From Narcine bancroftii (taxonomy: Eukaryota), in NCBI RefSeq assembly GCF_036971445.1, contig NC_091474.1, positions 209,126,001-209,190,000 on the forward strand: a DNA stretch of 64,000 nt, in the 5' to 3' direction. Position numbers and translations under genes: made by a program. Positions 48,632 through 55,374 of this stretch are shown here, in pieces. Numbering within the stretch: the stretch's first letter is position 1; every line of letters starts with the position of its first letter. The notes under the pieces were generated by a model. That model saw only the letters and a list, made by a program, of their open reading frames with translations, ran no database searches and was not told where the DNA came from.

Positions 48632-48975
48632 TCATAAAAGTCTGTAGACACAGTGATTGAAGTAAAAACGCAAAATGCTGGAGAAGCTCACCAGGTCAAA
48701 CTTCACTTGAAAGGCCTGTTTGGGGCCCCAGACCATGGCGAGGACACGTGTTGCATTTCCTGCGGGCATTTCTCTCTCCTTTCTCCACCTATTATCTCCT
48801 ACCTTTGCCACCTCCCCACCCCCCACCCCACCACTCTTTTGTTCAAACGCTTGCCGGCATTTTCTCATACCTTGAAAGGCTCAGGCCTGAAATGTCGGTT
48901 TGGTACTTTTACCTTTGCTAAATAAAGGACTCTGTTTGACCTTCTGAACTTTTCCAGCATTTTGTGTTTTTACTT
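48632..48975. mobile_element. Penelope-derived inverted element inserted in L1
   Basis: agtaaaaacgcaaaatgctggagaagctca / ttccagcattttgtgtttttact inverted ends; ccttgaaaggctcaggcctgaaatgtcggtt hammerhead remnant. Confidence 0.75.
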
Positions 48976-49276
48976 AGAACATGCACTTTGGCCTTGTCCC
49001 AGAATTCAAGAATTATGCATTACTGTGGTGGTACACCACCGGCCTACTGCAGGAGGCAACCTCTGTACCTGCAGGAGTGTAAGGGGACAGGACAACACCT
49101 GGCCGGCTGCCAATCAGTCGGCTTGAATGGATCAAGTCCCACCCGGTCAGGTGTCATCACCCTCCAGGGTATAACCCTGCGCTGGCCTCCCGAGGCCTCT
49201 CACTGAGGTTCTGTGGAAGTCTTTGAGGATTAAAGCCTGTTGTACAGTCTTTACCTTGTGTGTGTCTGATTCTGTC

Positions 49277-49801
49277 TGTGAGAGATGAGTAAAACTAATA
49301 TGAAAACATGAAAGATGAAGAAAACTAGTATGGATATATGTGTAATGAATAAAGCCAGTATGAATAGGCTAAGGATAGATAATAGAATGTAGGAAGTAAA
49401 GTTAGTCTGAATAAGATAAGGGTCTTCTAGCCTTAGACAGAATTAGCAAGTTCTGCATATAAGAAGTTAATATGCCCTGAGAGTCGGGAAGGTGTGAATA
49501 AGGACAATGATATGACAATAAGGACACCGCCAGGATACCCCCTGGTCCTCCAAGTTCACAGAAACAGCATGTAGGCAGACAGGATTGCCTAATGCCAAAC
49601 TCATCCAGGAGGCAGAAGAATGTAAGGGGGAGGGTTCTTCTATACTGAAATAAACTGTATAAAAGTTGGGTGAGCCCCAGTATGTGTGTGTATTCCCAGG
49701 GTAAGGGGAAGCACCCAACTTTGCATTGTTGTATAATAAATGTTCTTTGTTCTCAATTTTTGTCTCGAGCAATTTCTGTGAAGGTACTTCTGTTTCTCAC
49801 A
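49277..49801 (+). mobile_element. Solo LTR (525 bp, ERV- or Gypsy-like) nested in the 5' LTR of the Gypsy
   Basis: TGTGAGA...TCTCACA; TSD TGTC (49273-49276, 49802-49805); TATAAAA 49658, AATAAA 49735. Confidence 0.9.
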
Positions 49802-49850
49802 TGTCTAACAGCGCACCACAATTTAATCCACAAAATTTCCCACGGTTGCC

Positions 49851-52800
49851 ATGGAAAAACTCCTGAGCACAGGGAGCCTCGAGGTCGACCCATGCCACCC
49901 GGAAGCCCAGACATGCTTCGAGATCTGGCAGCACGCAGTCATCAAGGCACATGTGGGCAATATCCTGCCCAAAGAGGTTGGTCCTACTCCAGTCAAAGCT
50001 GGGTCCCCGCACCTTCCAGGTAACCAAAGGCTGCTGCACGTACAAGAGCACAATGGACACTCTCGAGAACTTGTTCAAGCCCCACCCTCCCATGAATGTG
50101 GTCTGTGCAAGGTACCCCCTCAACACCCAAGCCCAGCAACCCAGGGAGACGGCTGAGTTTTACCTGGGACACTTGCGAGAGTTGGCCTGACTGTCTGGCT
50201 GAAGCCAGGGTAGGTGTAGAAGAGGTCAAGAGGCTGATCCGGGACGTCTTCATCCGAGGGCTACGCTCGAGGGCCATCCGGCAGAAGCTGCTGAAGGACA
50301 ACATCTATGCCCTAACCAGGACTGTGGAACTGGTCCAAACCCTGGAAGCAGCAGCCCTGCATGTCGAAGCCTTCAATTCCAGGTTCCCCCAGGCTCCCTC
50401 ATGGCCCTCTCACACAGCAGCTGCTGGCCTAGGCCGAGCTGGGGAGGAAAATGTCACTGCAGCAGGCGCCTGGCGCGCCTGTAAGTACTGTGGGTCCTGG
50501 TGTGGGTCAGATCGATGATCGTGCCAAAACTGCCCAGCTAGGAACCAGTATTGTTCCCAATGCGGCAAGAAAGGCCACTTTGCAAAAGTGTGCCTCTCTA
50601 AACCTGTCGGCAGCTCAGCGGCCCTCTATGACCTCCTTACCTCCCCCACGGACTCCCCCACATGCATGTGCCGGGCGGCGCCATTGTCCCTGCGATGACT
50701 TCCTCCTTCCCCGAATTTGATCGCGCAACATCTGGCCCTGACAGCGACCGTCAGGGCGTGTGCCATGAGCATCTGCACTAACCCCTGCCCTCGCCAGCAC
50801 CGCTCACTGAGAACTACAGTAACGTCATGTCCGGCTCATGGCATGATGTCACTTCCAGCTGACATAACGATGTCATTGCCACTGGCCGTGATGACGTCAC
50901 TTCCCCTGGCCCAGCAGACATGGCAGGGGAAGGAGGCCAGCCATGCAGCTGCTCCCCATGTGCTGCCACAATCTTGGGCCAGGCAGCGTCCGACACGGAG
51001 GGCCCCCGACGACGTTGAGAACGACGTGGTTAACACGGGCCATGACTAGGCTGCCTTACTGATGCTCCCCACGCCACTGGGTGCCATCAGCTGCCGCACA
51101 CCACAGTGCAACCGACGGTAATGTGGTCAACACGGGCGATGACCAGTCCACCCTATTGACACGCCCAATCCCTCTGGATAGCGACGACTCTGAGATGGTC
51201 CTGGTCGCCACCACACTGACCAGTGACATCCACCACGATCTCGGGCGCTCGATGATGGACGTGCGAGTCAACAGGGAGGTAACAAAGTGCCTGTTGGACA
51301 GTGGCAGCACCAAGAGCTTCATTCACCCGAGCGTGGCCCATTCCCTAAGGTTAAAGGACCACCCCACCACCTGCTTGATCACCCTTACCACCAAGGATAA
51401 GACTGTTGATACCCTCGGGCACTGCTCTGTCGATATAATGGTGGGAGGGGAGACTTACACAGGATTCAGGCTCCTGATCATGCCCAAACTCTGGTCACCA
51501 CTCCTCTTGGGCCTGGATTTCCAGAGGCACCTGCAGAGTGTCACCCTTTCCTTCGGGGGGCCCCAACCTCCACTCACATTGCACAACACACCAACCTACC
51601 AGGCCAGGCCAACCTGCAGCCTCTCCACACTGCGCATCACCCCACCGGCGCTCTTTCCACATCTTGCGCTAGGCTGCAAGCCGATCACCACCAGAAGTAG
51701 GCGCTATTGCGCTGCAGACAAGGACTTCATCAAGGCGGAGGTGCGGCAACTCCTGGCGGAAGGTGTTATAGAGCCCAGTAACTGCCCTTGGAGAGCCTGA
51801 GTCCTGGTGGTCAAAGGGGGAAGTAAGCTGAGGATGGTCATGGATTACAGCTAGACCATTAATCGATACACCCAGCTGGATGCCTACCCCTTGCCGAGGA
51901 TCGCCGACATGGTCAATGAGATAGCCCACTACCGGATTTTCTCCACGATTGACCTGAAGTTTGGCGTATCACCAAATCCATATCCACCCGAAGGACAAGC
52001 CCTACACCACCTTTGAGGCGGACAGGCGCCTGTACCAGTTCCGCTGGGTTCTTTTTGGGGTCATCAACGGGGTCTCTGTCTTCCAGCAGGAGATGGATCA
52101 CATGGTAGACTGGCACAAGCTGAAGGCAACATTCCCATATCTGGATAACGTCACTATCTGCAGCCGTGACCAACAGGACCACGATGCTAACCTGGAAAAA
52201 TTCCTCCAGACGGCTGCGGAGCTGAAACTCACTTACAACAAGGAGAAGTGTGTGTTCAGCACCACCCGCCTCGCCATCCTGGGGTACATCGTGGCCCATG
52301 GAGTCGTCGGCCCAGATCCGGAAAGAATGCACCCATTAATGGAGTTACCCCTTTCCCCCACACTAAAGACCCTCTGCAGGTGCCTGGGCCTTTCTCTTAT
52401 TACTCGCAGTGGGTCCCTCACTTCTCGGACAAGGTCCACCCACTGTCCCAAGCCACAACTTTTCCCCTCCCACCTTAAGTGCAGGCAGCCTTCACCCGCA
52501 TCAGGCAAGACATGCGGTGATGAGCGATGCCTCCGAGGTGGCCCTTGCTGCTACCTTCATTGAAGGGGGCGCCCCATCGCCCTCTTCTCTAGGACCCTCC
52601 ACGGCTCCGAGCTAGGGCACTCTGCCATTGAAAGGGAGGCCCAGGCGATTGTGGAAGTGGTCTGCCACTGGCGCCACTACCTGGCTGGCAGGAGACTTAT
52701 GCTCCTCATGGACCAGCGGGCCGTACGTTCATGTTTAACACTTCCCACAAGAGCAAGATCAAGAACGACAAGATCCTGCGCTGGAGAGTTGATCTGACAA

Positions 52801-53760
52801 TCTACAGTACGACATCCAGTACTGCCCCAGGAAGTTTAATGACTCCCCTGATGTCCTCTCTCACACCTGTGCGTCTATGCATGACGACTGGTTGTAGGCA
52901 TTGCATGAGTCCCTCTGCCATCCGGGCATCACCCAGTTGTAACATTTCGTTAAGTCCTGAAATCTGCCGTACACCATCAGGGACGTCAGGGACATGACCG
53001 AGGCCTGTCGGGTCTCTGCAGAGTGTAAGTCCTGCTTCTTCTGCCCCCCCCCCCCCCCCCCCCCCATCCTGCCCCCGGCCCACATTGTAAAGGCTACTCA
53101 GCCTTTCGAGAGTCTCGGTGTGGACTTCAAAGGGCCCCTGCCTTCCACGAACCGAAACGTCCACTTCCTCAGAATAGTGAACGAGTACTCACGCTTCCCT
53201 TTCGCCATCCCTTGTCCGGACTCCTCCACAGCCACCATCATCAGGGCCTTGGGGCAGATTTTCACCATGTTTGGCTACTCCGGCTTCATCCACAGCGATA
53301 GGGGGTCTAGTTTCATGAGCGATAAGCTGCGCCAGTACCTGACAGCGAGGGGCATCGCGACCAGTCACACGACCAACTATAACCCGAGAGGCAACGGGCA
53401 AGTCGAATGCAAGAATGGGGTGGTCTGGAAGGCGGTCCTCCTGGCTCTCTGGTCAAAGGGGTGGGCCGTTGAGTACTGGCAGGACGCCCTGCCCGAGGAG
53501 CTCCATGCCATTTGGTCACTGTTGTGCATGGCTACCAACGAGACCCCTCACGAATGCCTGTTCTCATTCCCCAGGAGGTCAGCGACTGGAATGTCACTCC
53601 CAACATTGCTCACGTCCCCGGGATTGGTGCTTCTGCGTAAGCATGGCCAAAGCCCTGGTGGAGCAGGTTTTCCTTTTTCATGCAAACCATAACTACGCTT
53701 ACGTTAGGTTTGGCAGCGGCAGGGAGGACACTGTCTCAACCAGGGACCTGGCACCAGCAG
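49851..53760 (+). pseudogene. Gypsy gag-pol remnant (several stops and frameshifts)
   Basis: ORF pieces 49851-50156, 50096-50518, 51081-51800, 51961-52563 and 52994-53692 carry gag, PR, RT and IN motifs in Gypsy order. Confidence 0.88.
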
Positions 53761-55374
53761 GAGCACCCACCACACCATGCCACCCTCCAACCCAGGACAA
53801 TGCTGACTGGGCACACATACCCTTCCCCAGGCAGCTATGGGGCATGCAGGGCCTCCTTGACTAACAGGGGCCTGCTTCAGCCTTGGGAGACGAACCCACC
53901 CCCTCACCCATCCAATACGACCCACATACGTCGACCCTGGCCCCCCTGGCCACCTTTCTGTGCAGCACCACACCAGCCACACAAACCCCTGCCACGGGTC
54001 CCCCCACTTCCCTTCTGACCAGTGACCAGGAGCCAGTCCTACGACAGTCACAAAGACCCTGGTGGCCGCCGAATCGTCTCAACCTGTAAATATTGTATGT
54101 ACATAATGGGTGCGATTCTTTGTCACTGCCCCCCCCCCCCCCCACCCCGGGACAATTTTAAAGAAAGGGGTGAATGTGGTGGTACACCACCGGCCTATTA
54201 CAGGGGGAAACCTCTGTACCTGCAGGAGTGATTGGCTGCCAATCAGTCGGCCTGAATGGATCAAGCCCCACCCGGTCGAGTGCCAATCACCCTTTGGGAT
54301 ATAAGCCTGCGCCGGCCACCCGAGGCCTCACTCAGAGTTGTTGCAGCTACAGCCAGCCTGGCTTTGTGGAAGTCTTTGTGGCTTAAAGCGTGTTGTACAG
54401 TCTTTACCTTTTGTGTGTCTGATTCTGTCTAACAGCGCACCACAGAAACATAAGTATATTGGTGAAGTTTCAGGTATTCATATTCATTTTTGCCCCGGAC
54501 TTGGGAGACACACTTGGGTTATTTGGGGTTGAATACTCTCAAATTTGGATTCAGACCAGTATAATGGTAGGAAGACAAATTATACTTAGAGGCTGGAAAA
54601 ATTGGCAATAATTTCTGGAGTGGGCCTCAAAAGTGGGAAAGTGAATGTATGTCTTACAAACAGTTTGATAAATTTGACATCGATACACAAAAATTGGGGC
54701 AAATATCTAGGTTTCCTGGGGGAGGGAAATTGTGGTGGATGTGGTGGTGAAGCAGATTAATGAATGGCAGTTTTTTTCTGTTATTAGAGGTCGAAATAGA
54801 CATAAGGTTATTCTATTGATATTTTTTGTTGCCATGTTTGTTTCTCTTTTATGGACAAGTATATGTTTTGTAACTTCTGATTTACATAAGCTTTAATACT
54901 GACTCAAGGGGTTTGGGGAAAGTTTTTTTTAAAGGACTCAATAAAATTTAAATCAATAAAAAATTAATGAGGCCTATGTTCGCAGACTTTTACCATCTGG
55001 CTGTTTATAATTTCAGCTTTTTGTATAAACACTATCTAATAACATTCTCATACGCATAACCTCTTCTTACAACATTTGAGTTTTGTGATATTTTTAAGGA
55101 TGGAGGTACTTGTACTTTTGTGATTTTGGATTTTAAGCTTTCTCTGAATGAAATTGGGGTTTCAATCCTCCTCTCCACCATCCTAAGTGTAATATCGAGC
55201 TGTAAGTTTATAGTTCTCTGGAGAGAGAAAAAGAGGCCACATTTCAAGCTGCTGGTCCCATATGAGAATTGAAAGTCAGAGACAGGTTGTGAGGTTAAAT
55301 AGCAGGCACCTTTGCTTTCTCCCATTTGTTCTTTCCTCCCCTTATGCCTGCCATATTCAACTATGTGTTAGAAT

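Follow-up and report, generated by a model that had tools for sequence, protein, structure and literature searches.

A candidate self-priming system in an animal Gypsy clade whose predicted primer ends in the element's own poly(A) signal

A broken Ty3/Gypsy element in a 64,000-nucleotide stretch of the Narcine bancroftii genome (contig NC_091474.1; hereafter the window) belongs to an animal clade that probably primes reverse transcription with its own RNA. In the reading that we consider likely, a segment of the 5′ R pairs with the primer-binding site (PBS), the RNA is cut after the poly(A) hexamer that closes this segment, and the capped piece serves as the primer with no involvement of a tRNA. 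Priming from an R segment had been proposed in an earlier note on this DNA, and three lines of evidence now speak for it: covariation across the clade, RNA ends mapped from genomic retrocopies, and the break points of aberrant insertions, which fall at the edge of the duplex. With less assurance, we lean toward a wider account in which this animal Gypsy clade evolved self-priming independently of Tf1. In that account a single short duplex, formed by the PBS with the poly(A)-signal segment deep inside R, would both shut off 5′ polyadenylation and mark the site of RNase H cleavage, a capped 58-nt leader would prime, 15 to 20 nt of R would serve for strand transfer, and fossil intermediates would survive in the genome, including one-LTR mini-elements derived from strong-stop DNAs.

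The window element is not a chromovirus and retains its LTRs, its polypurine tract (PPT), and the domain order PR-RT-RH-IN (Table 1). The best match among solved structures is Ty3 Gag-Pol (E = 6e-63). The closest named proteins among the matches listed are from rays and sharks (∼70%), and further listed matches at 53 to 61% are from sea anemone, tunicate, prawn, and nematode; no relatives of the element were found in the viral contigs searched. Intact relatives carry a single ORF of about 1200 aa, and RNase H and integrase were found in all 28 of them. The 5′ LTR spans 49024-49820 overall, with the 3′ terminus ..CACCACA at 49820, and the portion at 49024..49276 is 88% identical to 54175-54429 across 231 aligned columns. 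Its U5 is interrupted by a nested solo LTR, which belongs to an unrelated family and has TGTGAGA..TCTCACA ends and its own TATAAA and AATAAA motifs. This insertion separates the target of the pairing from the leader, which are 586 nt apart in the window copy compared to 57 nt in the family. The LTR pair differs by indels of 22 and 23 nt, and the copy has no common target site duplication (TSD; ATTAC vs. GAAAC), 5-bp TSDs being typical of the family's solo LTRs. Given these two long indels, the 88% identity, and the lack of a shared TSD, the window copy is old or recombinant, and for the same reasons its LTR pair alone is weak evidence for pairing; the real support is the number of copies. Just upstream of the 5′ LTR, at 48660-48975, lies a small MITE-like element; its inverted arms are 42 nt long, 88% complementary, and separated by 232 nt.

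Table 1. Features of the element, numbered from the first letter of the window
Feature	Position	Strand	Remarks
5′ LTR, U3-R and most of U5	49024..49276	+	Starts TGTGGTGG; direct repeat of 54175-54429
TATA-like box, 5′ LTR	49170..49175	+	By sequence; position equivalent to the 3′ LTR box
R segment complementary to leader (predicted 3′ end of self-primer)	49222..49234	+	12/13 match
ATTAAA hexamer closing the R segment, 5′ LTR	49229-49234	+	
Nested solo LTR of another family, interrupting U5	49277..49801	+	525 bp, TG..CA, 4-bp TSD TGTC
3′ end of 5′ LTR	49802..49820	+	Identical to 54426-54444
Spacer A, then the 13-nt primer-binding position (complement of own R segment)	49821..49834	+	
gag-pol region with stops and frameshifts	49851..54089	+	End point approximate
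Aspartic protease	about 51258-51521	+	Pfam Asp_protease_2, 9e-10
Reverse transcriptase piece	about 51964-52293	+	Pfam RVT_1, 4e-16
Integrase core	about 53096-53386	+	Pfam rve, 8e-15
Polypurine tract	54160..54174	+	Abuts 3′ LTR; same motif precedes 3′ LTRs in other copies
3′ LTR	54175..54444	+	
TATA-like box at 54300; transcription start inferred at 54330 or 54331	54300..54331	+	Retrocopies L161, L194
Paired R segment, copy in the 3′ LTR	54375..54387	+	12/13; hexamer is CTTAAA in the window copy
Inferred poly(A) addition site	54402..54407	+	15-20 nt past hexamer; 8 A-tailed genomic copies

As the earlier note had observed, no TGG-type PBS follows the 5′ LTR: position 49820 is followed by one A and then by TTTAATCCACAAA at 49822-49834, with no TGG. 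This leader 13-mer is complementary to both LTRs, with a single and different mismatch in each (12/13). The note had deduced an intact 13/13 match in the ancestral LTR, and such a match does exist in family members. Our sample consisted of 32 distinct 5′-junction copies, the best-scoring of more than 2000 candidates in each search of the 3.3-Gb host genome. Among these best-scoring copies, pairing was 13/13 in 23 and 12/13 in 6, and the LTR was damaged in the other 3; 25 of the 32 had the same LTR 13-mer, 30 had the same leader 13-mer, and in 27 the target ended 56 to 58 nt ahead of the LTR end. Because the same 13-mers recur in family copies, the match in the window copy is not a product of chance. 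One leader variant was present 10 times, with a compensating LTR change in 0/10, so templated correction of the PBS was not seen within the family. Elsewhere in the clade, L107 and L108 are near-identical elements with integrase cores of 100% identity; a one-base difference between their LTR segments is accompanied by the matching base in the leader. The coordinates given in the note all proved correct. Pairing over about 18 of 22 nt is present in the window copy (17 Watson-Crick pairs and one G-U), but outside the core its conservation across families was no better than chance (permutation p = 0.35). The ATTAAA signal lies within the target in the 5′ LTR, but not in the 3′ LTR copy. The TATA-like box described for the 3′ LTR is indeed at 54300, 75 nt ahead of the target.

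We retrieved 85 related loci, 40 of which included the start of gag. A perfect run of 11 to 19 nt between leader and LTR was found in 33 of these 40 and wobble pairing in 3, all of one family; the duplex was absent at four (L079, which is cut 36 nt upstream, L080, L083, and L128). Of the 26 gag-start loci with a defined LTR end, 23 had the perfect 11- to 19-nt run and 3 the wobble pairing, and in all 23 tested loci none of 1000 LTR shuffles per locus reached the observed run. The remaining 14 loci had a run of 13 to 19 nt in 10 cases and none in 4. For a comparison between families, we took one representative from each of 21 (17 relatives, the window family, and 3 sister families), whose integrase cores are 47 to 100% identical. 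Leader and LTR showed compensatory covariation, which the note had proposed to look for in relatives, with 268 of 273 pairs kept with different letters in these families. When a leader was set against the LTR of another family, 65% of positions paired, and pairing was complete in 0/420 mismatched family pairs. The spacer was one base in all 21 families and A in 19, the paired segment ended in AATAAA or ATTAAA in 13, and GCC or ACC (RCC) directly followed the segment in 19. Some relatives kept the duplex where the hexamer reads ACAAAT, TGAAGA, or GGTAAA. We rejected a conserved hairpin after the junction, striking in predicted folds, as it occurred in 10/21 families vs. 7.5 in shuffles (p = 0.17).

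The pairing rule was also put to a forward test, in which the leader of a sister family was predicted from its solo LTRs. The predicted pattern was found 88 times, with a control count of 0; in the 20 loci that we read the pattern comes after an LTR end, and gag was downstream in 15. The host genome harbors at least three sister families with other paired segments (L171-L190, L198-L199). Six bacterial MAG contigs (L140-L145) carry this animal-type retrotransposon; most likely, host DNA was placed in the MAG during binning.

Four public runs, in contig form, carried no information on starts, ends, or tails. We read the ends of the RNA from genomic retrocopies, which were located by pattern searches of the host genome. 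Three patterns had a control count of 0. A loose A-tail pattern gave 13 rows and its control gave 13 as well, so that this count is no evidence, and only hits with LTR homology were kept (6 of 9 distinct places). Eight distinct LTR-derived copies carry A tails at 13 (with a deletion), 15, 15, 17, 17, 17, 18, and 20 nt past the hexamer, and six of these copies sit within TSDs of 9 to 17 bp. The position of the tails, 13 to 20 nt downstream, identifies the ATTAAA hexamer as a working poly(A) signal. Three further loci (L146, L147, and L169) consist of LINE 3′ ends that continue into LTR sequence and then an A tail, and are apparent 3′ transductions using the poly(A) signal of the LTR. At the 5′ side, L161 and L194, each within its own 17-bp TSD, share one starting base; it lies 57 nt ahead of the end of the hexamer and 30 to 31 nt past the TATA box. 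L162 begins 9 nt further in, the other A-tailed copies begin upstream and represent read-through or transductions, and none of the A-tailed copies starts at the paired segment. The TATA box, an initiator-like motif, and the two retrocopy 5′ ends thus concur on a start 44 to 45 nt before the segment in the window family; the two copies are short R-only RNAs, not full genomes, and perhaps come from one source locus. As read from these short RNAs, R is thus ∼75 nt long, the paired segment corresponds to R nucleotides 45 to 57, and U5 is ∼40 nt. By the mapped start and poly(A) site, the paired segment is therefore internal to R, at a depth of ∼45 nt, whereas that of Tf1 is located at the cap; this agrees with the geometry that the earlier note had foreseen.

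From these positions a priming mechanism can be outlined. A segment of 13 to 19 nt in the 5′ R, with the hexamer at its end, would pair with the site immediately following the 5′ LTR, closing a loop of 57 nt. The RNA would then be cut directly after the hexamer, presumably by the RNase H of the reverse transcriptase (RT), by analogy with Tf1, and the capped 5′ piece (∼58 nt) would prime minus-strand DNA. Strong-stop DNA would be only about 57 nt long, and the first strand transfer would have to proceed via just 15 to 20 nt of R, from the cut to the poly(A) site; so short an overlap would explain many mis-jumps. Pairing and cutting would at the same time disable the 5′ poly(A) signal, giving one duplex two jobs. 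For plus-strand synthesis to avoid copying the ∼58-nt primer, trimming or a second cut would be needed.

Aberrant insertions offer a view of reverse transcription intermediates. A search for an inverted joint in the window family returned 26 exact and 30 one-mismatch rows with a control count of 0; the matches with three mismatches, 3209 in number, were mostly ordinary LTRs on the opposite strand. We examined 54 loci, comprising every exact and one-mismatch place plus two two-mismatch places. Five of them (L249, L257, L262, L274, and L283) proved to be ordinary LTRs or short duplications and were discarded. The other 49 are true joints, in which R ending exactly at ATTAAA continues into the complement of the spacer and U5. 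Such a joint is the product expected of RT if a strand that ends at the hexamer serves as primer on the PBS. The joint at ATTAAA was selected by the search itself, and the other end of the insertion was unselected. Some joints could also stem from growing plus-strand DNA that hopped to the PBS through the same 13-nt match. The same inverted joints were present in 4/20 sister-family loci.

The 49 joints differ in what lies beyond them. Seven are full palindromes, with exact 5-bp TSDs in 4; those at L230-L232 and L242 are ∼530 bp long (a whole LTR, A, and inverted U3-R) and represent two U3 ends accepted by integrase. Another 18 (within L233-L282) are fold-backs, solo-like LTRs with an insertion at the hexamer, 10 of them with exact 5-bp TSDs, and 15 of the 18 turn at LTR position 236, the first base past the hexamer. 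Internal sequence adjoins 0/18 fold-backs vs. 8/29 ordinary LTR hits, and the fold-back copies may be one-LTR DNAs that were integrated directly. One insertion jumps into the leader. In the remaining 23 informative insertions, the U5 copy stops at LTR position 231 to 245 in 14 (the hexamer ends at 235) and at the cap (about 178) in none, a clustering with a binomial probability of 8e-13, or 1.6e-11 after allowing for the choice of interval. Twelve of the 14 breaks were placed by automatic extension, and those of L277 and L278 were set by eye. Breaks at 231 to 245 occur in 10 of the 13 insertions that are joined to other element sequence. A template ending just past the hexamer is the expected remnant of a cut at the edge of the duplex. 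At L260 (G000:C5:368.63 Mb) we found a tandem array with a 90-nt unit of U5, spacer A, and inverted R, in which an aberrant RT joint has been multiplied into a minisatellite, and L241 has a 46-nt U3 unit in more than 10 tandem copies.

On the primer side, the arm runs to the start of U3 in 40/49 aberrant copies, breaks at the cap only in L244, and in L270 runs on into the PPT and pol. Arms that reach U3 leave room for a primer from the 3′ end, in which the 3′ copy of R, at the terminus of the same or a co-packaged genomic RNA, would pair with the PBS and be cut after the hexamer, so that a long, U3-bearing RNA primes. No extra jump would then be required, whereas a capped 58-nt primer would call for an extra jump and for selection of integrable ends. 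We nevertheless regard a 3′ R primer as unlikely. It would leave the 5′ R uncut, allowing RT to reach the cap, and yet 14/23 U5 copies end near 236 and 0/23 at the cap. Moreover, only ∼57 nt separate the 5′ copy of R from the PBS, and in the predicted fold this copy is dominant. Since only molecules with two proper ends integrate, U3-ended arms would probably be favored under either model. The earlier note had admitted both an internal and a 3′-terminal R segment, and the sequence evidence favors the internal, 5′ one.

A primer with the geometry of Tf1 appears more doubtful still. Here the full-length RNA would start at the segment or be trimmed to it, the primer would measure 13 to 16 nt, and the upstream start would belong to short RNAs from solo LTRs. 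Such a primer would suit the perfect runs of 11 to 19 nt and the unconserved outer pairing, and the problem of plus-strand synthesis would disappear. A TATA box was sought in the 17 non-host families and none was seen, save two TATA-like words in one of them; in invertebrate-type relatives, which show no TATA box, the primer may therefore sit at the cap. In the window family, however, the TATA box, the initiator-like motif, and two retrocopies agree on the upstream start, and the third retrocopy also begins ahead of the segment. Sister families likewise have TATA-like boxes 79 to 110 nt before the junction in many copies. No A-tailed sister-family copies were found with the single pattern tried, whose letters excluded the window family.

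The earlier note had also suggested that the leader silences 5′ polyadenylation. This is a plausible role for the duplex: the hexamer works on RNAs only ∼75 nt long, so its 5′ copy needs silencing, and an AATAAA or ATTAAA closes the segment in more than half of the families. It is very unlikely, though, that the duplex merely hides the 5′ signal while another primer is used and the odd insertions arise from DNA template switches through the 13-nt match. The leader arm always begins one base past the LTR end, which is the very position at which priming has to begin, no second PBS was seen in the element, and the break cluster at 236 requires a template end there. Nor can silencing be all that the duplex does, as the pairing is retained in some relatives that have no AATAAA-like hexamer.

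We compared the leader with 28 distinct tRNA calls (14 anticodons) from 30 host loci, and the best 3′-end match was 7/18 and the longest internal run 5 nt. Priming by a host tRNA, tRNA half, or other small RNA, with an incidental LTR match, is scarcely credible: the loose clade-wide sequence bias in the segment, the 65% pairing between unrelated families, and a screen of 14 anticodons leave it some room, but the leader has no TGG and so fits no CCA end, and the host genome contains four different leaders that each match their own LTR.

Self-priming from the 5′ R segment, if correct, would have several consequences. It suggests that a primer can be other than the 5′ end of the RNA and that priming can be directly coupled to the choice of poly(A) site. 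Self-primed elements would be expected to escape silencing by PBS-directed tRNA fragments, and annotation tools that demand a tRNA site overlook such elements. By using retrocopies for RNA ends and aberrant insertions for RT intermediates, the priming of extinct families becomes testable from the genome alone.

Tf1 and Tf2 of Schizosaccharomyces pombe and Tj1 of S. japonicus are the experimentally studied self-priming Ty3/Gypsy elements; according to the accessible text of the reports, they have no tRNA site and a PBS complementary to their own R, and their primer is proposed to arise by cleavage 3′ of the duplex (PMC7175516, PMC4600332). The window clade shares with them both the lack of a tRNA site and the complementarity of the PBS to R. 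The Tf1 primer, however, consists of the RNA's first 11 bases, whereas the segment of the window family is internal and ends in a working poly(A) hexamer. Tf1 is also a chromovirus, whereas a chromodomain was detected in 0/28 intact relatives of the window element at an E-value threshold of 0.01, and no Chromo accession was present among the 120 homologues listed. The wider Tf1/sushi group (fungal and vertebrate chromoviruses, Tcn1 clade) is described in the accessible text as having a self-complementary PBS and a three-duplex "pretzel" (PMC10085805, PMC6317226). The window clade resembles this group in that a vertebrate Gypsy element has a self-complementary PBS. We did not find the three-duplex pretzel in the predicted folds of 18 representatives, in which any pairing of the sequence 3′ of the PBS involves R upstream of the segment and is not conserved. 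The window clade has the conserved RCC after the junction (19/21). With no chromodomain, no pretzel, and no RNA start at the paired segment found, the window element is best described as working like Tf1 and is not filed under Tf1/sushi. Self-priming has also been predicted from LTR/PBS complementarity in the TAR lineage of plant Ty1/copia elements (Houba, Osr-1), which is another superfamily and for which the accessible text describes no link to a poly(A) signal and no mapped cut (PMC6317226).

Among animal elements, Cigr-1 is listed under the Mag lineage and found in tunicates and molluscs according to the accessible text of PMC6238403, and that of PMC2774666 does not name it. Like the Cigr-1 clade, the window clade consists of compact single-ORF animal Gypsy elements. 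The ORF and LTR sizes of Cigr-1 resemble those of the window clade, which may be identical to this clade of the Mag lineage. Repbase Reports reportedly contains "self-primed Gypsy" families from sea urchin, sea anemone, and frog; if these belong to the window clade, the complementarity may have been noted there already, and we know of no mapping of RNA ends or of a cut in those entries. Our search of the open literature, with most subscription papers and Repbase Reports outside it, found no paper on self-priming in the clade or on an overlap between primer and poly(A) signal.

Retroviruses such as HIV-1 occlude their 5′ poly(A) signal, of the AAUAAA type, by base pairing. There the pairing takes the form of a local hairpin and priming is by a tRNA, whereas in the window clade the pairing partner is the PBS itself, so that only the 5′ copy of the signal can be masked. 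To our knowledge, self-primed reverse transcription has been proven only in chromoviruses of fission yeast and is elsewhere inferred from complementarity alone. Self-priming itself is thus known from Tf1/sushi, and what is new here is the proposal that the primer lies internally and includes the poly(A) signal, for which the support goes beyond complementarity. A non-chromovirus animal clade with mapped RNA ends and with breaks at the predicted cut suggests that self-priming had an independent origin.
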